Of a stretch of 64,000 nt of DNA, positions 9,211 through 60,713 are shown one piece after another. Position 1 is the stretch's first letter. Every line of letters starts with the position of its first letter. The notes under the pieces were generated by a model. That model was given only the letters and a program-made list of their open reading frames with translations, was not told where the DNA came from and ran no database searches. Where the stretch lies: the NCBI GenBank assembly GCA_009923445.1, contig RFTN01000001.1, positions 4,523 through 68,522 of the forward strand, written 5' to 3'. This DNA is from a bacterium (GTDB taxonomy: Bacteria > Patescibacteriota > Saccharimonadia > Saccharimonadales > SZUA-47). The translations under genes were made by a program, and so were the position numbers.

Positions 9211-9804
9211 TTAGCTAGGTAGTAATACGCCACCAATAACATGTACTACACCGTTGTCGGCATTAACATCAGCTGCTTCAACAACAACTTTATTGCCCTT
9301 TGCGTCAGTTAAGTACACCTTACCGCCCATAATCGATACAGTGAGGTTTCCACCCTGTACGGTTGTAATAACTTGACCATCTTTTAGGTCAGACGCAAGT
9401 ATTTTACCTGGTACGACGTGATAGGTAAGAATCGACTTCAGTGTATTGACGTTCTCTGGCTTTAGTAGCGTATCTAGTGTGCCTGCTGGCAATGCCTCAA
9501 AAGCTGCATTTGTTGGTGCAAACACTGTAAACGGACCTTGTCCCTGCAGTGTGTCTACTAGGCTTGCGGCTTTTACGGCCGTAACCAAAGTTGATAGGCT
9601 GGGAGTATTCGATGCCAATACAACTATTGTTCCAGGACTTTTAACTGCTGGTTGCTGTGTTGCTTGTTGAGTTTGGCTTGTTTCGTTAGTAGTCTTTTTG
9701 CTGTCATCTTTCTTTGAACTTACCGCCCAAAGCAAGCCAGCGCCAATTGCAAGTACGGCTACAATTCCTACTATGATTCCTGTTTTATTATTACTTTGTT
9801 CCAT
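9211..9804 (-). CDS. Fasciclin (FAS1) domain surface protein with N-terminal membrane anchor and Thr/Gln-rich linker
   Basis: TVFAPTNAAFEALP...LTYHVVPGK...GGNLTV... FAS1 signature. Confidence 0.6.
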   Translation of the reverse strand: MEQSNNKTGIIVGIVAVLAIGAGLLWAVSSKKDDSKKTTNETSQTQQATQQPAVKSPGTIVVLASNTPSLSTLVTAVKAASLVDTLQGQGPFTVFAPTNAAFEALPAGTLDTLLKPENVNTLKSILTYHVVPGKILASDLKDGQVITTVQGGNLTVSIMGGKVYLTDAKGNKVVVEAADVNADNGVVHVIGGVLLPS

Positions 9805-35337: not shown

Positions 35338-35994
35338 ATGCTAAGTATGTACTTTGCATTTCTTGCACTTATAATTGTCGGCATTTTATTACTTGTTTCT
35401 GAAGTATTGTGGCGCAAAAAAATAATTTCAGGTGAGTTTGGCCGCAAGTATGTGCATATGTCTATAGGCATATTTATTGCAACATGGCCTTTTTTTATGT
35501 TACTAGAGATTATTCAGCTCATAGGCTGTGCTGCAATAGTTGTACTTTTTTTGTCACGTAAATTTAATATATTCCATGCCATACACGACGTTAAACGTAC
35601 GACGTACGGCGATATACTATACCCACTTAGTATTGTACTAATTTCGCTACTTGCTCAAACCGACTGGATATTTTCATTAGCCGTACTGTTTTTGGCCGTG
35701 CCAGATGGAATGGCTGCCATAGCCGGCAAGAAGTTGGGTAACAAGCACGGTAACATCAACGTGTGGAACAGTAAAAAGACAATAGTTGGCACCTGTACTT
35801 ATGTACTATTTGCTTACATAGTAATTGGAGTTGGTTTGCTTATTGGGGGCAAAAATACATTAGTTTCAAATGCTGGCATTGTAGTGTTATTGCCGCTAGT
35901 GACTGCAATTTTAGAGGTTATATCACCCTACGGTTTAGATAATTTTACCGTACCGCTAGTTGTCGTTTTGACGCTTAATGCTTTAACTGCGTAA
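35338..35994 (+). CDS. CdsA-superfamily membrane protein, dolichol/phytol-kinase-like (CTP-dependent polyprenol kinase candidate)
   Basis: RKYVHMSIG and C-terminal GLDNFTVPL motifs characteristic of the CTP-transferase-1 / polyprenol kinase family. About 6 TM helices. Confidence 0.4.
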   Translation: MLSMYFAFLALIIVGILLLVSEVLWRKKIISGEFGRKYVHMSIGIFIATWPFFMLLEIIQLIGCAAIVVLFLSRKFNIFHAIHDVKRTTYGDILYPLSIVLISLLAQTDWIFSLAVLFLAVPDGMAAIAGKKLGNKHGNINVWNSKKTIVGTCTYVLFAYIVIGVGLLIGGKNTLVSNAGIVVLLPLVTAILEVISPYGLDNFTVPLVVVLTLNALTA

Positions 35995-44716: not shown

Positions 44717-45235
44717 CTAATTTGCTGCTAGGTAGTTTTTTAGTAATAGTATTGTATCTTTAAGGTTAATTTTTGTAGGGTGACCAGCATCGATTTTACT
44801 AATAATTTCATCAGGCATAAGCCACTCTGCGCTTACGAAATCGTTTGGGTTAAATGTTGGCGTATCATCACTGCGGAATAGATAAATAGATCTAATATAT
44901 TTTATATCATTAGAAACGTCTTTACCGATTAGCTCTATTTCTTGCTCATTTATATCTAAATTTAGCTCTTCTTGAGCTTCGCGAATTATAGTTTGTATGT
45001 AATTATCGCCTGCGCTCACATGACCGCCCACTGAATAGTCAAAGCCGTTGGGTGCAATTGTTTTATGTGCCGTACGAATAGGTATGTATAGCTGACCTTT
45101 AGAATTCATAATAAATAAATCGGACGCCCTAATATATCCGATGTTGTCAGCAAGCATTTGTTTGTAATCTTTACGATTAACAGTACCAATAACTTCGTCG
45201 TTTTTGTTTACTAGGTCTAGAAGTTCATCATCCAT
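44717..45235 (-). CDS. NUDIX hydrolase
   Basis: Nudix box GGHVSAGDNYIQTIIREAQEELNL. Confidence 0.7.
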   Translation of the reverse strand: MDDELLDLVNKNDEVIGTVNRKDYKQMLADNIGYIRASDLFIMNSKGQLYIPIRTAHKTIAPNGFDYSVGGHVSAGDNYIQTIIREAQEELNLDINEQEIELIGKDVSNDIKYIRSIYLFRSDDTPTFNPNDFVSAEWLMPDEIISKIDAGHPTKINLKDTILLLKNYLAAN

Positions 45236-45306: not shown

Positions 45307-45383
45307 TGGTACACCCGGACGGATTCGAACCGCCGACCTCTTGTTCCGAAGACAAGCGCTCTATCCAGCTGAGCTACGGGTGC
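45307..45383 (-). tRNA. tRNA-Arg (anticodon TCG), CCA encoded
   Basis: Hand-folded: anticodon loop CTTCGGA. Acceptor and D-arm nearly identical to tRNA-Arg(TCT). Confidence 0.85.
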
Positions 45384-45609: not shown

Positions 45610-46233
45610 TTACGTGTTACTTATTATGGGTGCTTGCTGAATAAAGCTATTTTTTTCAAGAATTTCAATAATTGCTGCTGCAACGTCGAATCTTGAAACG
45701 TATGGTTTTGTTGGTCCATTGCTTCTAAGTATAAAAGGGCTTGGAGCTGTATTTTGTAGCTTTAGAACACGCAATATAGTCCAATTTGTATCACTCTTTT
45801 TTATTAGCTCAACATGTTTTTTGCCATCGGCTATGCGCTTTGGATCAATAAACCCAATAGATAAATTTAATATATGGTCTATTATGGTGATTTTGTCGCC
45901 CTCAAAACGCACGCCCGTACCAGTGAGGCTTACTAAACGCTTTATGCCTAGTGTATGCATAGCTCGCAGTGCGGTAGCTATAGCGTCGGTCTGTACGGTA
46001 GCACTAGATTTTTTTGTGTGACCAATAAGGCTTACAACGGCGTTGCAATCCTTAAACAATCGTAAGACTTGTTCGTAGTTTGTGGCGTCGCACTCAAACA
46101 CAGCTAGGTTATCGTTCTTTAAAAAGGGACTCGTGCCGTATACGCCAGCGTTAATTTTATGACCGGCCCCTAAGGCTGCTTCTACAAAAATTTTACCCGA
46201 TCTTCCGTTAGCTGCTAGTACCGCTATACGCAT
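45610..46233 (-). CDS. NAD(P)H-binding Rossmann-fold protein (NmrA/SDR-like)
   Basis: MRIAVLAANGRSGKIFVEAAL glycine-rich dinucleotide motif. Confidence 0.5.
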   Translation of the reverse strand: MRIAVLAANGRSGKIFVEAALGAGHKINAGVYGTSPFLKNDNLAVFECDATNYEQVLRLFKDCNAVVSLIGHTKKSSATVQTDAIATALRAMHTLGIKRLVSLTGTGVRFEGDKITIIDHILNLSIGFIDPKRIADGKKHVELIKKSDTNWTILRVLKLQNTAPSPFILRSNGPTKPYVSRFDVAAAIIEILEKNSFIQQAPIISNT

Positions 46234-46236
46234 ATA

Positions 46237-47118
46237 CTACACAAACACTTCTTCGAGTGACTTTGGCTTTATTTCAGGGAATAGTTCTGACGATACATTA
46301 TTAGTAACTAACATGGGGTTCGAAAGTGACTCAACCATGATTCTGCCAACTTTGGCATGTATGCGCGGGGTAAAAAGATTTAACCACCACGCAGCAACAC
46401 TAACAGGTATAACGTGGAGCTTAACTATTAACATTTTTTTGTTTCTCCAGGCAGCGTAGCGTTTCATTAAATCTCCATAAGATAGCTGCTCGGGGCCTCC
46501 AATTTCAACAATTTGATGCTTAGATGTCTTTAGGTCTATGGCTGCAATTAAGTAACTTAGTGCATCATTTAAGCCAATAGGTTGTGTGAGTGTTTTGGCC
46601 CATTTAGGAAGTGTTAATATAGGTAATTTATGAATTAAATTAACAATTATATCGTACGAAATACTACCGTCACCTATAACCATAGAAGCTCTAAATTCAA
46701 TCACCAATGGCAGGCCATTTTTTAGAATTTGGCCTGTTTTATGCCTGCTGGCTAGATGCTTGGAGAGTTTTTCATTATCATTTCCGAGCCCGCCTAAAAA
46801 TATTACTCGCTTTAATGCTGAGCCTTCGGCAGCAGTACAGAAACTTTTTGCTGCTAATGATTCTGCTTCAGCAAAATCTAACTTATTTTGAGCCATCATA
46901 TGTATTAAGTAATACGCGGCGTCACAGTTTTTTAAGTATACTCGTAACTGTTCGGTATCGAATACGTCTACATTGTGCTTTGATAATCTCGTATCATTAA
47001 GCGGCATCGATTCGGCTTGCATCGAAAGAGCCACGATAGAATGATTGGTTTCAGCTAAAAGTTGTTTTATTAAGTTATGCCCAATGTAGCCATTGGCACC
47101 CAATACGGCAATAATCAT
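46237..47118 (-). CDS. NAD-dependent epimerase/dehydratase / NmrA-family protein
   Basis: MIIAVLGANGYIGHNLIKQLL dinucleotide motif. Tandem with the previous gene. Confidence 0.5.
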   Translation of the reverse strand: MIIAVLGANGYIGHNLIKQLLAETNHSIVALSMQAESMPLNDTRLSKHNVDVFDTEQLRVYLKNCDAAYYLIHMMAQNKLDFAEAESLAAKSFCTAAEGSALKRVIFLGGLGNDNEKLSKHLASRHKTGQILKNGLPLVIEFRASMVIGDGSISYDIIVNLIHKLPILTLPKWAKTLTQPIGLNDALSYLIAAIDLKTSKHQIVEIGGPEQLSYGDLMKRYAAWRNKKMLIVKLHVIPVSVAAWWLNLFTPRIHAKVGRIMVESLSNPMLVTNNVSSELFPEIKPKSLEEVFV

Positions 47119-47208
47119 AAGCTTATTGTAACACTTATGGCTTTTAAAGTAATAACCCTATGCATGTAAATTATCATGCATAGGGTTAGGTACTATTTTA
47201 GATAGTAT

Positions 47209-47937
47209 TTATTTTGAAGCAGCTTCGACTGTTGATTCGCCAGCTTTTGGCTTGACGCTTTCAGATAGTGACTTAATACCAGCAAGCAATACTAATCCAA
47301 AGACTGCTTTTGCTGTTACATCAAGTACTGCATATACTGCGTTTTCTGTTTCGAATGATAATGTTCCGACACCGCTACCTGCTAGATACCAAACTACAGG
47401 GTAAGCAATCCATAGTACCGACAAGAACATAGCAAGTGACATGTACAGCTTAGTTACCTTAGGGCCTGCAACTTTTTTAGACTCATTAAGAACAACTACG
47501 TACAGCATGTATACAATCAGGAAGAGTGCTACACAGCTAAACACATACCATGGCCATTTTTGTTCAGTTAAAGTAGCGAATACTCCAGTTATAATCATGT
47601 ATACATCAAGGCCAATTACGCCTGTTAGTATAGACCCGCGTTCTTTACTTTTATTTTTTGGAATTGCTACTGTCACCAAACTTGCAAGTAATAGTGGCGT
47701 AGTTATAAGCCAGTCTGCGTAACGTGCAAGCTGTACTTCTTGACCATTAATTACAAAGGTACCAAAGCCAATTGTTAGAGCATAGTACGATGTAGCTGCA
47801 ATGAGCGTAATCCAGCCAGCTAGAAACACATGGTGCCTGTCTTCTTTACGTAATGTTGATCCTAAAAAACCTATGGCTAGAGTACCGATTATCATACCCC
47901 ATAATCCGAACTGGAGCCAACTTATATCTGCGTTCAT
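47209..47937 (-). CDS. Type-1 microbial rhodopsin (7TM, retinal-binding Lys present)
   Basis: Helix C RYADWLITTPLLLASL, helix F WIAYPVVWYLAGSG, helix G LDVTAKAVFG with the Schiff-base lysine. D-T-S at the bR 85/89/96 positions by alignment. Confidence 0.8.
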   Translation of the reverse strand: MNADISWLQFGLWGMIIGTLAIGFLGSTLRKEDRHHVFLAGWITLIAATSYYALTIGFGTFVINGQEVQLARYADWLITTPLLLASLVTVAIPKNKSKERGSILTGVIGLDVYMIITGVFATLTEQKWPWYVFSCVALFLIVYMLYVVVLNESKKVAGPKVTKLYMSLAMFLSVLWIAYPVVWYLAGSGVGTLSFETENAVYAVLDVTAKAVFGLVLLAGIKSLSESVKPKAGESTVEAASK

Positions 47938-48009
47938 ATATAACCCTTATGTTAATTTATGACATAAGTATACATCGATTTTATTTTTTACAAAAACTTT
48001 TTTGTAAGT

Positions 48010-48462
48010 TTATTTATTAAGTTCTGTAATATAGTTTTTTAATCGCTTTAAAGTTGTTTTAAGGCCTATTAAGGCAATAGGTTTTACTATAAACCAACCA
48101 ATTTCGCCCATAAACCCAAACGGAACCTCTACGTATTCTGTCCATGTAAACTGTGTCGCTGTTCCTTTTTTTGAAGTTTCAAACACGCCCCTGCCTTTAA
48201 CTATGTTGCCCGTATGCGACACCTCGCATCTTGTTCCATAACTCCAGGCTGTAATTACCATAGTATCGTTAAACCCAAAACTACCAATACCCGTAAAGGC
48301 TTCGATTGTGCCACCTGCTTTCTTTGAATTTGTACTTGTCGCTCTCACTTTGGTCAGCAGCACCCAATTACTTTGTTTATTCCAGTCGGTTACGACATCA
48401 AATACTGTATGAAGAGGGGCGTCTATTATTATGCTTGCCTGAATGCGCTTAGTATTACTCAT
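48010..48462 (-). CDS. SRPBCC (START/polyketide-cyclase-like) fold protein
   Basis: Size and beta-grip pattern (IIIDAPLHTVFDVVTDWNKQSNW...). Confidence 0.35.
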   Translation of the reverse strand: MSNTKRIQASIIIDAPLHTVFDVVTDWNKQSNWVLLTKVRATSTNSKKAGGTIEAFTGIGSFGFNDTMVITAWSYGTRCEVSHTGNIVKGRGVFETSKKGTATQFTWTEYVEVPFGFMGEIGWFIVKPIALIGLKTTLKRLKNYITELNK

Positions 48463-50702: not shown

Positions 50703-50802
50703 AAAACCTCCGGGTTATGTTTCTTATATTATACTCCCCTCGTTCCAGCAATAGATATAAATGAATACCCTTATAAAGGGACATTGAAGCATAACCGGGA
50801 TT

Positions 50803-50879
50803 GGAGGGCCAGCCGGGACTTGAACCCGGGACACCCTGCTTAAGAGGCAGGTGCTCTAACCAGCTGAGCTACTGGCCCA
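50803..50879 (-). tRNA. tRNA-Lys (anticodon CTT), CCA encoded
   Basis: Hand-folded: acceptor GGGCCAG/CTGGCCC, anticodon loop CTCTTAA. Confidence 0.85.
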
Positions 50880-54908: not shown

Positions 54909-55541
54909 CTATTCTTGGTCGGGTACTTGTTCGACAGAAACAGCAAAGGCTGCTTCGTTTGGTCCTTCAGTCTTTTGGTAACCGTAAATGCCGCCAGCTA
55001 AAGCCGTAGCAGCAATACCGGCTAAAATTATAGGGTTCTTCGTAAGATATTCAAAACTTTCAGAAGCTGCAGAAAACGCTTTGTTACCAGGTTCAGATGC
55101 CCACGCACCAACTATACTTCCATAAAGACCTGCATGTGTAAGTCGTCTGCGTGATGTAACTTCGCTGCCGTTTAGAGCATCAAGATATACGCCTGATGCC
55201 GCTCCACGCCACGCCGTTGTAATAAGAGGTATCTTTTGAGATATCTTTTTAACAAATGAAGTCACTTTTCGTTTTGGTTCCCAGGTCATATCTATGTCAC
55301 CAGATGTTGCAAGATATGTCATGCCATACTCAGTTGCGGTTGTCCCTATAGCAAATCCAATAGCTGGTAAAAGGGTTGGTATATCGTTATGGACTGCAAT
55401 ACGGTTAAATGCGATTGCTGAAGCCCATGTCGCATTACTTATCCAGCCAGATGCAAATACTAAGGCGCCTCTACCAACCATTCTTTTTTTATGATTAGCG
55501 TCAGACTGATTTTGTTCAAGTTGCGGTAATTGTTCACTCAT
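54909..55541 (-). CDS. Hypothetical membrane protein
   Basis: ORF with several hydrophobic segments. Confidence 0.3.
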   Translation of the reverse strand: MSEQLPQLEQNQSDANHKKRMVGRGALVFASGWISNATWASAIAFNRIAVHNDIPTLLPAIGFAIGTTATEYGMTYLATSGDIDMTWEPKRKVTSFVKKISQKIPLITTAWRGAASGVYLDALNGSEVTSRRRLTHAGLYGSIVGAWASEPGNKAFSAASESFEYLTKNPIILAGIAATALAGGIYGYQKTEGPNEAAFAVSVEQVPDQE

Positions 55542-55868
55542 ATTAATTATTATAACAGAAAACTGTTAATTATGCAATATCTTTTTAGGGCAATTATACC
55601 CTCAAGCCATAGTGACTAAATAGTTCTTCTCTTTCGTTATATACTTGGGTTATGAAATCGAAAAAATCCCAAAAGCCGTCAAAGCAAGATATAGCTTGGC
55701 AGAAAAGAGTTGAAGAGAAAACTAAAGTTGAGAAAGTACAGTTAGGTCGCATAGATGGTAAAGAAAAATTTAATCAAATTATAAAAAAAGTACTAAAAAA
55801 TTAAATCCTAAGTGGGATAAACTCTTAAAAGTTACTTTTTCAGCTGTACAAGTACAAATGAATGAGTA

Positions 55869-56303
55869 TTAAGCACGTTGGCTAGAGTAAGTAGTTCGAT
55901 TGAGAGCTATCTTTGCAAGACTAATACCACGAGATACGTCCATTAACTCCTCAGCTGAGGCAGCAGTTTGATCTGGAATAAAGTGTTCAAAAACAACCTG
56001 ATCAGTTGCAGCAGAAGCAGATCTTGCACCTAGCTCCACTACTCGTTCCTCTGACATTTCAGCTCTTGTATTAAAATAGCTCGTCATTGCACGGGCTACC
56101 AGTGAATCGTCATCTACGTCCGCCGGTAAATCAAACGTTCTAGCTCGATCAATATGCTCACGCGTTACAAGAGCTGTACCAGTAGACGGCCCATGTTCTT
56201 GCTTCCAGTCTTTTCGCAGAGTCTGTGCAAGTCTGCCAGGCTTAAGGCGATCTGAACGCTTGTGTGGTGGCCTCGGTTGTTTCGAGAATTGACGCTTAGA
56301 CAT
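55869..56303 (-). CDS. Hypothetical protein (higher-GC island)
   Basis: 144-aa ORF with a basic N-terminus. Local composition is visibly more GC-rich than the flanks. Confidence 0.3.
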   Translation of the reverse strand: MSKRQFSKQPRPPHKRSDRLKPGRLAQTLRKDWKQEHGPSTGTALVTREHIDRARTFDLPADVDDDSLVARAMTSYFNTRAEMSEERVVELGARSASAATDQVVFEHFIPDQTAASAEELMDVSRGISLAKIALNRTTYSSQRA

Positions 56304-56345
56304 AATTATATATTATAAAGTAATTGTCGTTATCTGTCAAAAATA

Positions 56346-56552
56346 CTATCTATCTAGGTATCTGTTTCGGCCACTAAGCGAGATAATGGCCACCAGCACG
56401 AAACCTACGCCGCAGCCCATTAACAGATACGGCTGAACATTATCTTTTAGTATGCCGACTGCTAAGCCCACAAACACCGCACCTAGAAAAGCCATTCCAC
56501 TAGGGTACTGTGTGCTGAGTATGTTATTAGTTTTCTTCTTTGCCATTTTCAT
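56346..56552 (-). CDS. Small membrane protein (68 aa)
   Basis: Two TM segments. Confidence 0.25.
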   Translation of the reverse strand: MKMAKKKTNNILSTQYPSGMAFLGAVFVGLAVGILKDNVQPYLLMGCGVGFVLVAIISLSGRNRYLDR

Positions 56553-56591
56553 AATTCCTTCGTTATATATTAACCATAAGTGTAATACCAG

Positions 56592-56903
56592 TTAGGTATT
56601 TCTACCAGTATCTTGACTGACAATTTGTCGCAGCATTTCTACGTGACTATCGAAGGCCTTCCGACCTGCTACCGTAATGGCTAACCATGTCTTCGGCCGT
56701 CTGCCAACAAAAGCCTTCCGTACTTTGATATAGCCTGCTTCTTCGAGCGTCGAAGTGTATCTTGAAAGAAGCGAATCACTTATCTCAATTGTGTCTCGCA
56801 TAGTGCTGAACTCAACTTCTTTAGTGGCGGCCAGGGCGGCCATAATAGACAGTCGTGCCGGTTGGTGGATTAGCGAGTCAAGCTGTTGGTAAGCAAAGCT
56901 CAT
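56592..56903 (-). CDS. Winged-helix transcriptional regulator (ArsR/MarR-like)
   Basis: LSIMAALAATKEVEFSTMRDTIEISDSLLSRYTSTLEEAGYIKVRK wHTH pattern. Abuts the upstream membrane-protein gene. Confidence 0.45.
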   Translation of the reverse strand: MSFAYQQLDSLIHQPARLSIMAALAATKEVEFSTMRDTIEISDSLLSRYTSTLEEAGYIKVRKAFVGRRPKTWLAITVAGRKAFDSHVEMLRQIVSQDTGRNT

Positions 56904-57365
56904 TTACCTAGCCTCGGCTTTTACTTTCAGGCCATAGCCTATATAGAACAACGAAAGCAGAACGCCGGAGATTGTCCAAGCATAGTGATACTTAGAGTGA
57001 AAACCTTCGGCCAGAGCTACCGCTAAACTTGTAGCCGCAACTAGAGCGACCCAAACAAACCATGGGGTAGATGTAAAGATGTGCACCCTAGCGGACTTGT
57101 CTCTGAAATAACGAAAAGTTAATATCATGCCAACAATCCAAACTACAGAAATAATTGGTCCCCAGATGTTACCATTCAGAAAATCAAATGGCGGATAACC
57201 GAGTAGTACAAAGAGTCCCCAGCCTATAAAAGGCACGTACTCTTTAGGCCCTTGGGCTTTTACCTGACGTTGTGTGGCATTGATATTACCCAATGCCTGT
57301 TTAGCTTCGGATGTGGATAGTTCTTTCATACTTGTATTATACTTTACATATAGTAAAGTTGTCAA
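56904..57365 (-). CDS. Membrane protein co-transcribed with the wHTH regulator
   Basis: Four TM segments, with a 0-nt gap to 56592..56903. Confidence 0.35.
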   Translation of the reverse strand: MTTLLYVKYNTSMKELSTSEAKQALGNINATQRQVKAQGPKEYVPFIGWGLFVLLGYPPFDFLNGNIWGPIISVVWIVGMILTFRYFRDKSARVHIFTSTPWFVWVALVAATSLAVALAEGFHSKYHYAWTISGVLLSLFYIGYGLKVKAEAR

Positions 57366-57657
57366 GTACTATACTTGTGTACCGGAAGTTTTATCCCGTC
57401 AGGAACACTGCGCATAGACACCACTACGCTTCTTCCCATATCTCCTCAGTAAGCACCCCTCGCTCTTTTAGATTCTCAACGGTCGTAAACCGTATATGTG
57501 GTCTATCTTCGTCGTCATACTCCCAGATCTCAGCCATCAGTCCCCTGGTTCTGCGTTTTGCGTATATGAGGTCTGTGAGGCTAGCGCAGACTAGTAGCAT
57601 GGTAGGCCTGGGATCGTCGTACGTCTGCTCGTCCCATTCATTTAGCTCTTCATCTAG

Positions 57658-58286
57658 TTACTGCACGTACTTCTTCAGTTTGTTGCGTAACCGGTACCGA
57701 GGCAAGGTAGGATCAAAAATCTCTAGTAAATAGCTTGCTACAGTGGTGTCTGGATCACCAATGCTGTCATCCGTATCATCCTCAGACTGGGCGATACAGA
57801 GATCGGGGTGGATTAGCTCGTTTTCACTCAAAAAATGGTAACGCATCTCACTGCGGTTGTCAGCCTCAGTTTCGTAGTAGTAACAGGTTGTAGTGTAGTA
57901 AGTGCCGTTCCGTTCGTTGTCAAGCTCTAGGCAGACATCTGCCAGTAGAAGACTATGGTCAATGAAGGTCTGGCTACGTTCGTGTTCTCGGTAGCGTTTT
58001 CTCAGTTCTTCGTCTGGGTGGAAATCCATATTCTGCATATGTCGTATGCCGTTAATACCAAGGTAGTAGATTGCTGGTTTCATTTGTTAATAAAGTCATC
58101 TTTATCGTAGATCCAGTTAATATAGTCTTTAGCTCGTAAGTCTTTAAGCCATAGGTTAATAGTTTTCTTATCTTTGTGTTTCATTAATGTTTGTATTTGT
58201 ATTCTGGTAAGGAATCTATGGGTATAAAGTAGATCTAGTATTGTTCTTTGTTTATAGGTTATTTTTGGTACTTGAATTAGTTTCAT
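57658..58286 (-). pseudogene. Replication-relaxation (Replic_Relax)-family gene split by a frameshift into 58080..58286 (wHTH N-part) and 57658..58083
   Basis: N-part KQRTILDLLYTHRFLTRIQIQTLMKH...INLWLKDLRAKDYI and continuation MKPAIYYLGINGI match the family pattern (ILxxLyxhRxLTxxQI...vYyLgxxG). The two ORFs overlap at ATGA. Confidence 0.35.
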
Positions 58287-58379
58287 TTTGCCAAACCCTC
58301 CTACTCCCAGTTATATATAAAGGTAGGTACCACTATATTCCTGATTTAACAGATTGACACATGCGCTATCCTGCCCTCG

Positions 58380-59330
58380 CCCGTGGGGGCAGAAACACAG
58401 TGCGTTTTCTACTTGGTTTGAGGAATTGGTGAGCTGAGTAGTTTGCCTAATATGAGCTCAAACATGGGTGTATCGCTCTTGCGATTTGAGTAACGAAAAG
58501 CGTATTCATTAGCATAGTGCTGTAAGTAGATTGGATCACAGTGGCGATAGACGCCGTAGATGCCACGCTTGAATTGGCTCCAAAAGTTCTCGACGTTTTG
58601 GGTGTGTACCCAGCCTACAACGTATTGTTGCTTGCCATGGTTGACCGTCTCATGCAAGTAACCACGTTTCTTAAGCAAACGGTACGAGCCATATTCATCG
58701 CTATAGATCGTTGCGTTCTGATCTATGTTCTTTTGGATTTCAGGTACTAATACCCGAGTACCTGAGCTTTTAACATGCTTGATTCTGGCGCGTCCACCTC
58801 GTTCTACCATACCGAATAAAACTTGGCTATTATGTGGTTTAGCTGAACTGCGCTTTTGAGGGTTAGGGTGCATGTAGGCTTCATCAACTTCAACATCTGT
58901 ATTGAGTTGAGTATTGTCGTAGGCCATCATAAGGCGAACTTGTTTGAAGATACGCCAGGCAGTTTTATAGGTTACGCCGGAGATTCGTTGGAATTGTAGG
59001 GCTGACATACCCGAACGAGTATTGGTCATAAAGAAGATCGCCAAAAACCATGTTCTCAGGTCAGTCGTAGACTTATGAAATGGCGTACCAGCTAGAGGGT
59101 AAAGTTGGCAACCACATTGGCATTGGTAGGCTGGACGGTTAGGCAGTTTATGGAAGCCGTCGTACAACCCACAGGCAGTACAGGGCTTGTCTGCGAAGTG
59201 CATTTTCCAGAGGTAATCTAAGCAGGAGTCACTAGTAGGAAACTTCTGCTTAAACTCTTGGATTGTGAACTTCATATCTGTTAATAGTATACTCCAGAGA
59301 TGTTATGGCGTCAAGGGATAATTGCCCTTT
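58380..59330 (-). mobile_element. IS1595-family insertion sequence (approximate boundaries; terminal inverted repeats not resolved by eye)
   Basis: Single transposase ORF of IS1595 type. A GC-rich palindrome CTGCCC...GGGCAG sits at the 3' side. Confidence 0.4.
58409..59275 (-). CDS. IS1595-family DDE transposase
   Basis: N-terminal zinc-ribbon (CTACG...CQCGCQ), and a DDE core with D in VEVDEAYM, D in IYSDEYGSY, E in NVENFWSQFKR. Confidence 0.8.
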   Translation of the reverse strand: MKFTIQEFKQKFPTSDSCLDYLWKMHFADKPCTACGLYDGFHKLPNRPAYQCQCGCQLYPLAGTPFHKSTTDLRTWFLAIFFMTNTRSGMSALQFQRISGVTYKTAWRIFKQVRLMMAYDNTQLNTDVEVDEAYMHPNPQKRSSAKPHNSQVLFGMVERGGRARIKHVKSSGTRVLVPEIQKNIDQNATIYSDEYGSYRLLKKRGYLHETVNHGKQQYVVGWVHTQNVENFWSQFKRGIYGVYRHCDPIYLQHYANEYAFRYSNRKSDTPMFELILGKLLSSPIPQTK

Positions 59331-59705
59331 TTAGCTTTGTTTTGCTAGAATAGCACGTATTGTTTCAACAAGTTCACCAGGTGTTGTATGTGCTTTAACA
59401 ATATAGTCTTCGATATCATGATGCCAAAGTGTTTTAGGTGCTTCTGAGCTGTTGATATTTGTCAGTACTATAATAGGTGCGGTAAGTGTGCTGTAGTTTT
59501 TGCGGTATAGTTCTAAAAATTGTTCACCGTCCATCACGGGCATTTTAAGGTCTAATAATATTAAATCGGGTACATTATTTTCGAGTAGTTTTAATGCCTC
59601 TAAACCGTTGTATGCCTGTAAGCATGTGTAACCGCTATGCTCTAATTTAATTTTGTACAGCGTTGAAATGTTGAAATCGTCTTCGACAAGTAGTACTTTT
59701 GACAT
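59331..59705 (-). CDS. Stand-alone receiver-domain protein (CheY-like), paralog of 54446..54814
   Basis: KVLLVEDD...LLDLKMPVMDG...TN..SEAP...KA. Shares the SEAP region and overall pattern with the other orphan REC. Confidence 0.7.
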   Translation of the reverse strand: MSKVLLVEDDFNISTLYKIKLEHSGYTCLQAYNGLEALKLLENNVPDLILLDLKMPVMDGEQFLELYRKNYSTLTAPIIVLTNINSSEAPKTLWHHDIEDYIVKAHTTPGELVETIRAILAKQS

Positions 59706-59858
59706 TTGTTTGTAAAATAAAAAACTTGATTTATTAATATAATTATGCTAATATATTTCTAGGTTTAAAACCATTGCACTTTTGAAACATAACACACCGA
59801 CGCCTTAATTACTAAGGTTTGGTGTGTTTTTTTGTTTTTAAAGTCGCTAGAAATTTTT

Positions 59859-60713
59859 ATGATTACACAAGAATTAGGTTCGGTAGAATATAATCCAGGT
59901 TATAAGCAGGTTGAGGTTTATGACGAGTTTAATGCACCTTATGGGGGTCATAAAGTTGTTGTATTAGGTTCTTGCGACTGGAGAGCAAAAGCTGCTTTTG
60001 ACATTGAGCTTTTTAATATGATGATGTTGGGCGATCCTGAAGAGCTTGCTAGGCAAGATTTGATAAATGGTTTTGAAAATGCCAAATTCTTAGCTTTATA
60101 TAATAATGACGAATATCCTGCGGACTATAATATGCTTGGTGTTGTTCGTATAACAGATGCAGATCCTAAAACAGGTGAAATTGGTACGATTCATGAAATA
60201 GCAAAAGTTACCGGTGATTCTTATGACGATGTGTTTAAGCACTTCGTGGCTCAGACTGGACAAACTGACCCTACGAAAGTTTTTGATATAACTACGTACG
60301 GCATGTCTCCGTTAGTATGGGAACGTGCAAATGAAGACAAAGAATTGTTTCAAAATACAAAATACAATTTAATGTATGCAATGTCTTATGAGGGCGTTAA
60401 GCAGTATCAGCAAGAAGGTAAGTCCACCGCATTAGCTTATTTTAACGCATTTTCTAAAAATTATTTTGTTAACAAAGGCTACGATTGGAAGGATTTGAAC
60501 GGCTATCTGCCTAAAAACGACGTGTTCATTAACGATAATGGTATTGAGGTAGTAGGTCAGTTGGTAGTGCCTACAGTTTTAGACATAAAAGAACACATTG
60601 ATCGTATGAATAATGGGTTAACTTTACACCTAGGTGAAATTGCGACGTTTATGTTTTCGAAGGGCGTTACTTTACCGAAGCCGCAAGCTATGCATACAAG
60701 ACGGGCAAGTTAA
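59859..60713 (+). CDS. Hypothetical soluble protein (about 285 aa) between the orphan REC and the multi-TM histidine kinase
   Basis: ORF only. Start chosen at ATG 59859 rather than TTG 59832. Confidence 0.3.
   Translation: MITQELGSVEYNPGYKQVEVYDEFNAPYGGHKVVVLGSCDWRAKAAFDIELFNMMMLGDPEELARQDLINGFENAKFLALYNNDEYPADYNMLGVVRITDADPKTGEIGTIHEIAKVTGDSYDDVFKHFVAQTGQTDPTKVFDITTYGMSPLVWERANEDKELFQNTKYNLMYAMSYEGVKQYQQEGKSTALAYFNAFSKNYFVNKGYDWKDLNGYLPKNDVFINDNGIEVVGQLVVPTVLDIKEHIDRMNNGLTLHLGEIATFMFSKGVTLPKPQAMHTRRAS

Follow-up and report, generated by a model that had tools for sequence, protein, structure and literature searches.

DTS rhodopsins have been noted in Saccharibacteria of lakes and in the glacier-ice genomes of Zeng et al. 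2020 (Jaffe et al., 2021; PMC8406219). Three members of the SacR clade, SacR_NC315, SacR_NC335 and SacR_LP818, have been expressed; in the light they acidified the medium, and CCCP abolished this effect (Jaffe et al., 2022; PMC9296517). The three proteins absorbed near 550 nm, formed a blue-shifted M intermediate and rebound retinal within 30 s, and the genomes with SacRs were found to have H+-type ATP synthases and to lack blh (PMC9296517). Outward H+ pumping has also been described for KaDTS of Kushneria aurantia and HsDTS of Halomonas (PMC9296517).

The gene described here lies in a 64-kb stretch of DNA (hereafter the window), and comparative analysis makes it very probable that it encodes a further SacR, which is a retinal-binding, light-driven outward proton pump with an external chromophore. 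Like the three tested SacRs, its product has the DTS motif, the Schiff-base lysine, an Ala at the position of T46 of bacteriorhodopsin (BR) and the loop RKEDRHH, and it shares with them a Saccharibacterial host, a sunlit cold freshwater or ice habitat and the lack of a blh gene nearby. It is not one of the three tested sequences, and its gene order differs from that of the three published SacR loci, although a gene of 293 aa downstream of the rhodopsin is common to the window and the NC315 locus. The rhodopsin is only about 40% identical to that of L014, a locus likened to that of SacR_NC335 by gene order alone (gene sizes and a downstream glycosyltransferase). KaDTS and HsDTS have the DTS motif and the Ala at BR T46 in common with the protein (PMC9296517), but they are about 34-36% identical to it and their hosts are free-living proteobacteria.

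The rhodopsin gene and its clade

The gene is located as follows.

47209..47937, minus strand: SacR-type microbial rhodopsin of 242 aa, with the DTS motif D75/T79/S86, the Schiff-base lysine K210 and the counterions D75 and D206

The ORF starts with ATG, and its range takes in the stop codon. The original prediction had described it as a type-1 rhodopsin with all hallmark helices, and this description holds. In the HMM search, the Pfam family Bac_rhodopsin (PF01036) matches residues 4-222 at E=1.6e-47 (162 bits against a cutoff of 24.6). An AlphaFold (AF2) model built on 22 relatives has seven helices (pLDDT 90.9, pTM 0.87) and superposes on cyanorhodopsin, SpaR, BR and archaerhodopsin with TM-scores of 0.8-0.9, so that family match, model and superposition all give the seven-helix bacteriorhodopsin fold of a type-1 rhodopsin. 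Among PDB sequences, the protein matches 179 distinct rhodopsins, headed by SpaR (8anq, E=1.9e-34) and followed by the 6kfq rhodopsin and Acetabularia rhodopsin II. An identical protein is deposited at NCBI as NBX97691.1 (assembly GCA_010027835.1) under the name "DUF1422 family protein". This name is a misannotation, since it rests on sub-threshold matches (Pfam DUF1422, 22.7 bits against a cutoff of 23.2; NCBIfam YijD, 29 against 127), whereas Bac_rhodopsin scores 162 bits.

Twenty-one further protein clusters, several of them named Candidatus Saccharibacteria, are 46-82% identical to the window rhodopsin, and beyond these 22 clusters the protein-database matches reach at most 40%. The rhodopsin of the SacR_NC315 locus is 57% identical, and loci outside the SacR groups do not exceed 42%; the NC315 locus (L006) was recognised by its contig coordinate, 18680, which agrees with Table S2 of PMC9296517. 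In a neighbour-joining tree, which is distance-based and carries no support values, the window protein is nested among the SacRs, together with SacR_NC315, which supplies the phylogenetic placement that had been proposed as a check. L014 branches apart with L104 beside a Thermoleophilia sequence, the gammaproteobacterial DTS pumps form the clade neighbouring the SacRs, and sequences with a His at BR T46, a SpaR-like feature, fall elsewhere. Both the grouping with characterised SacRs and the DTS motif at BR 85/89/96 thus mark the protein as a member of this clade. The occurrence of such rhodopsins in Saccharibacteria had been mentioned in the original prediction, and the literature bears it out (PMC9296517, PMC8406219).

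The lineage-named relatives of the RecA encoded in the window (82-88% identity) all belong to Candidatus Saccharibacteria or Saccharimonadales, so the window comes from a Saccharibacterium; the same holds for those relatives of the rhodopsin and the 293-aa gene that carry a lineage name. An ENA contig with the identical rhodopsin gene bears the sample tag ZENG19-1, and the window genome is probably among the glacier-ice genomes surveyed earlier.

Conserved residues and the predicted proton pump

The window protein and 21 relatives were aligned with BR by MAFFT; in the BR sequence used, 27 of 27 landmark residues stood at their expected numbers. The positions of functional weight correspond as follows.

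BR R82: R72, counterion complex
BR D85: D75, proton acceptor
BR T89: T79, second motif position
BR D96: S86, donor position, non-carboxylate in the window rhodopsin
BR D212: D206, counterion
BR K216: K210, Schiff-base lysine
BR T46: A40, partner of D96 in BR
BR E194: S188, proton release group
BR E204: E198, proton release group
BR W138: Y131, retinal pocket, beta-ionone side
BR M145: L138, retinal pocket, beta-ionone side

The residues of outward pumps at BR 85, 89, 82 and 212 are all present (D75, T79, R72 and D206). In BR numbering, R82, D85, T89, D212 and K216 are invariant in the 22 clade members, as are the pocket residues W86, L93, M118, G122, S141, W182, Y185, P186, W189 and A215. An invariant lysine and retinal pocket throughout the clade argue for selection on retinal binding. 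The original prediction had pointed to the lysine of a DVTAK motif and to the stretch RYADWLITTPLLL, and had made its case depend on a retinal-binding Lys in a proper alignment. Both elements are found in the ORF, and K210, within D206-V-T-A-K210, aligns with K216. The Asp/Thr/Ser reading at BR 85/89/96 is also borne out (D75/T79/S86), giving a pump-type acceptor with a non-carboxylate donor; among the 22 clade members the motif is DTS in 19, DTG in 2 and DTT in 1.

With BR, a DTD rhodopsin, the protein has in common the fold, the counterion complex, the retinal pocket and E204, and it differs from BR at D96 (Ser), T46 (Ala), E194 (Ser), W138 (Tyr) and M145 (Leu). As E194 is replaced by Ser188, the proton release path differs from that of BR. 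The unchanged L93 and A215 would fit green absorption, and the smaller side chains of Y131 and L138 would fit the retinal-entry opening that has been reported for the model of SacR_NC335. Two further stretches are kept across the whole SacR clade: the cytoplasmic loop R30-x-E32-D33-R34-x-H36 (RKEDRHH, residues 30-36), which takes the position of the SpaR His pair and of the carboxylates of MpR-like pumps, and the C-terminal tail KPKxGESTVEA (residues 229-242).

In the proposed mechanism, all-trans-retinal would form a protonated Schiff base with K210, and upon illumination the proton would pass to D75 inside the counterion complex R72/D75/D206. Ser86 stands in place of BR D96 and Ala40 in place of BR T46, which leaves the protein with no carboxylate as internal donor, and reprotonation of the Schiff base would take place from the cytoplasm. 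The ATP synthase of the cell, the genes of which were not found in the 64-kb window, would then draw on the proton gradient. Because every key residue, including the RKEDRHH loop, is common to the tested SacRs, outward proton pumping is the best explanation, and we infer that the window protein pumps as its tested relatives do and takes its retinal from outside. An identity of 57% to a tested relative is good support for predicted pumping, short of proof. Lacking a carboxylate donor, the predicted pump may turn over slowly or in a pH-dependent manner, as SpaR does (PMC10154332); SacRs are not known for the acid-only pumping of the SpaR-like type.

The chromophore would be taken up from outside, possibly from a host cell, because no retinal-synthesis gene lies nearby. 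As the original prediction had claimed for blh and crt genes, the Pfam search of all non-nested ORFs of at least 90 aa in the 64 kb (shorter ORFs nested inside longer ones being left out) detected no Brp/Blh, phytoene synthase, phytoene desaturase, lycopene cyclase or RPE65-type enzyme. A relaxed Pfam scan (E up to 1) for a blh hidden among the unannotated membrane proteins also gave none. The search covered the 64-kb window, and a blh gene may lie elsewhere in the genome. The content of the window is mainly housekeeping, with the DnaK, DnaJ and GrpE chaperones, the HrcA repressor, RuvABC and RecA of recombination and repair, a cluster for type IV pili, cell-wall enzymes of the Mur series, and GlyA and FolD of one-carbon metabolism. 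A NUDIX protein at 44717-45235 weakly resembles YfcD and type-1 IPP isomerase, in both cases below threshold; in other bacteria an idi gene often accompanies rhodopsin-carotenoid clusters. Another protein, of 218 aa and multi-pass in the membrane (35338-35994), has no Pfam or NCBIfam match even at E=1, and by eye it resembles proteins of the polyprenol/dolichol kinase type.

Transcription signals and neighbouring genes

The rhodopsin gene is surrounded by the following features.

45610..46233, minus strand: 207-aa NAD_binding_10 protein, starting 3 nt after the 293-aa gene
46237..47118, minus strand: 293-aa NDUFA9-like or YbjT-like atypical SDR (Pfam NAD_binding_10 and Epimerase)
47153..47188, minus strand: terminator-like hairpin from a terminator scan, directly 3' of the rhodopsin stop, with a 14-bp stem, 6 G-C pairs and a T-rich tail
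47938..48009, minus strand: 72-bp spacer 5' of the rhodopsin, in which a Shine-Dalgarno-like site (AAGGG) and a possible promoter (TTGTAA / TATACT) were seen by eye
48010..48462, minus strand: 150-aa SRPBCC protein (Polyketide_cyc2, E=4e-8), upstream of the rhodopsin

The 90-nt spacer after the rhodopsin folds at -25.5 kcal/mol (z = -4.6). Hairpins with a U-run between the rhodopsin and the 293-aa gene also occur in the loci L006, L090, L008, L103 and L010, and in all three clades with this arrangement the spacer hairpins have z-values of -2.8 to -6.1 and a T-rich or U-run tail. For this reason the rhodopsin looks monocistronic, and the idea that it forms an operon with the 293-aa gene was rejected. 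With the spacer upstream and the terminator hairpin downstream, the rhodopsin looks to be its own transcription unit. The AAGGG site and the TTGTAA / TATACT pair are possible initiation signals; the spacing of the latter is about 15 nt, for which reason a consensus scan did not report the promoter. The 207-aa gene is probably co-transcribed with the 293-aa gene.

The original prediction had named an SRPBCC protein and two NAD(P)-binding proteins as neighbours of the rhodopsin, and Pfam agrees (Polyketide_cyc2; NAD_binding_10 in both of the others). Its further guess, that these neighbours act on retinoids or carotenoids, is not supported by the comparison of 28 SacR-clade loci from GTDB genomes and JGI metagenomes. 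The SRPBCC gene recurs near a SacR in one other lineage only (L013, 40% identity, 1.5 kb off), the 207-aa NAD_binding_10 gene recurs in none of the 28 loci, and the 293-aa gene stands behind a terminator. The NUDIX, DUF6671 and PLD genes also show no recurrence among these loci, and the 207-aa protein has only 26% identity to a paralogue in L083. On a second contig with the identical rhodopsin, the SRPBCC gene is split across two frames (L002, 1-385; 94% and 83% identity), owing either to a frameshift or to an assembly error.

The 293-aa gene alone recurs widely. In the window it follows the rhodopsin at a distance of 60-95 bp, and so it does at 15 other SacR loci, which belong to three clades and differ in their outer flanks; the NC315 locus is one of them, and the published table lists the gene there as unannotated (PMC9296517). 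This arrangement speaks for a functional module, in which the SDR would convert retinol to retinal and the SRPBCC protein would perhaps serve as retinal carrier. SRPBCC proteins in general bind hydrophobic ligands, and the second occurrence of such a gene in L013 points the same way. Several lines of evidence nevertheless make such a module unlikely. Strong terminator-type hairpins separate the rhodopsin from the 293-aa gene in every clade, and five SacR lineages have no 293-aa gene adjoining the rhodopsin. With 1704 homologues at E<1e-10, the 293-aa family is also far larger than the clade; over 120 of its clusters reach at least 60% identity, whereas the SacRs amount to 22 clusters, and on all three of three long contigs with close orthologues (62-74% identity) no rhodopsin lies within 5 kb. 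In L004, where the rhodopsin is intact and 71% identical to that of the window, the gene survives as a frame-broken remnant (9534-9696, corresponding to residues 2-24 and 61-88) located 6.4 kb further downstream. The SRPBCC gene, for its part, is near a SacR in two lineages only.

The nature of the 293-aa protein also argues against such a module. Its best PDB sequence match is chain P of 9g83, which the fold search describes as an alphaproteobacterial respiratory supercomplex, and its model (pLDDT 90) has a TM-score of 0.85 to 9g83 and to the NDUFA9 subunits of mitochondrial complex I. The Tyr and Lys of the SDR motif YxxxK are replaced by the invariant H121 and R125. NDUFA9 binds its nucleotide non-catalytically.

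The 293-aa gene was therefore rejected as a rhodopsin-specific partner, given its wider spread, the three of three contigs without a rhodopsin and its decay in L004, and the simplest reading of the adjacency is a leftover gene order around a common gene of Saccharibacteria. There is only a slim chance that the rhodopsin/SDR pair of three SacR lineages reflects a real partnership, in which the SDR would be a membrane-peripheral NAD(P)H binder involved in the supply or processing of the chromophore or in coupling to the pump; if true, this would be the first handle on how episymbionts that make no retinal acquire their chromophore.

Distant homologues of the 293-aa protein (31-35% identity) occur 7-9 kb from related actinobacterial rhodopsins in L031, L036 and L043, where the simple ORF caller is unreliable because of the high GC content; with this distance and the opposite strand, the link to these rhodopsins is weak. 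The small genes that precede the rhodopsin in other SacR lineages do not encode SRPBCC proteins, as judged by BLAST with the window SRPBCC and by reading of the sequences; by eye they look like a soluble protein or a small membrane protein. In a further SacR lineage, the genes directly downstream of the rhodopsin in L007 (791-1276) and L009 (10846-11487) look by eye to be of the Crp/FNR type and not NDUFA9-like. L009 also has a small membrane protein directly upstream of the rhodopsin, with a 49%-identical homologue 9 kb away in L004.

Other functional readings and significance

An opsin may also work mainly without a chromophore, for example as a phospholipid scramblase, given that lipid scrambling independent of retinal and of light has been described for opsins of bacterial, archaeal and bovine origin (bioRxiv 10.1101/2025.08.17.670764), and the lack of blh in the 64-kb window would suit such a role. 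Against it, all 22 clade members, at 46-82% identity to the window protein, retain the lysine and the complete retinal pocket, and the tested SacRs bind retinal fast and pump protons (PMC9296517). This makes a mainly chromophore-free function highly improbable; lipid scrambling could be a side activity of the opsin rather than an alternative to pumping.

That the protein is a sensory rhodopsin, an inward pump, an acid-activated mirror proteorhodopsin or a Na+/Li+ pump, and not a plain outward H+ pump, has hardly any probability left, although some DTS or DTG proteins belong to these types, the DTS motif by itself does not predict function (PMC10154332) and one published tree set the clade between SRI and SRII (PMC9166423). 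Sensory rhodopsins I and II have an adjacent Htr-type transducer, and no MCP or HAMP protein was detected by Pfam beside the rhodopsin or elsewhere in the 64-kb window (ORFs of at least 90 aa); Chiriac et al. likewise found no transducer gene for the SacR clade (PMC9166423). Acidic E32 and D33 lie near the carboxylate sites of MpR-like pumps, but NC315, with the same RKEDRHH loop, is an outward, CCCP-sensitive H+ pump (PMC9296517).

The inward-pump and xenorhodopsin types were set aside by the residue at BR D212. Inward pumps/xenorhodopsins, some of which are DTS, and Anabaena sensory rhodopsin have a Pro at this position, whereas the window protein retains D206, and an Asp here would fit outward pumping. 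SpaR is the best match among solved structures (8anq; 35% identity, TM-score 0.82-0.88), and it resembles the protein in having no carboxylate donor and a cytoplasmic His-His pair, H35 and H36 in the window protein. However, the proposed donor of SpaR, His37 at BR T46, is Ala40 here, which places the protein outside the definition of mirror proteorhodopsins; it also belongs to a separate clade, outside the His-bearing sequences of the tree, and its match to SpaR falls far below the 1e-65 clustering threshold of PMC10154332.

A tRNA-Arg(tcg) at 45307-45383 and a tRNA-Lys(ctt) at 50802-50878 bracket a block of 5.4 kb that contains the rhodopsin, both NAD-binding genes, the SRPBCC and DUF6671 genes and two unknown genes. 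The GC content of the block is 0.38-0.39, against about 0.41 elsewhere, and together with the flanking tRNAs this is suggestive of an island or of horizontal transfer. Farther along, the region 54909-60713 may be a mobile element; it encodes a Replic_Relax protein (57658-58083), an IS1595-type transposase (58409-59275), a winged-helix HTH_34 protein and several unknown genes. A 450-aa protein at 53059-54411 matches the NCBIfam model of MurL (UDP-MurNAc-L-Ala-L-Glu epimerase) at E=3.6e-73, below the curated cutoff, and the Mur ligase beside it hints at the MurD2/MurL route to D-Glu in peptidoglycan.

The protein, its motif, the host group, the function in close relatives and the missing retinal pathway have all been published already. 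To this the window adds one more member of the SacR clade and a corrected annotation, together with a check of the individual residues, evidence that signals of its own set the gene apart, and a test of the neighbouring genes with a largely negative outcome. For the organism, light-driven outward proton pumping by a SacR would depend on retinal from other organisms, and this dependence, as published for the SacR clade, points to a chemical link with the host.
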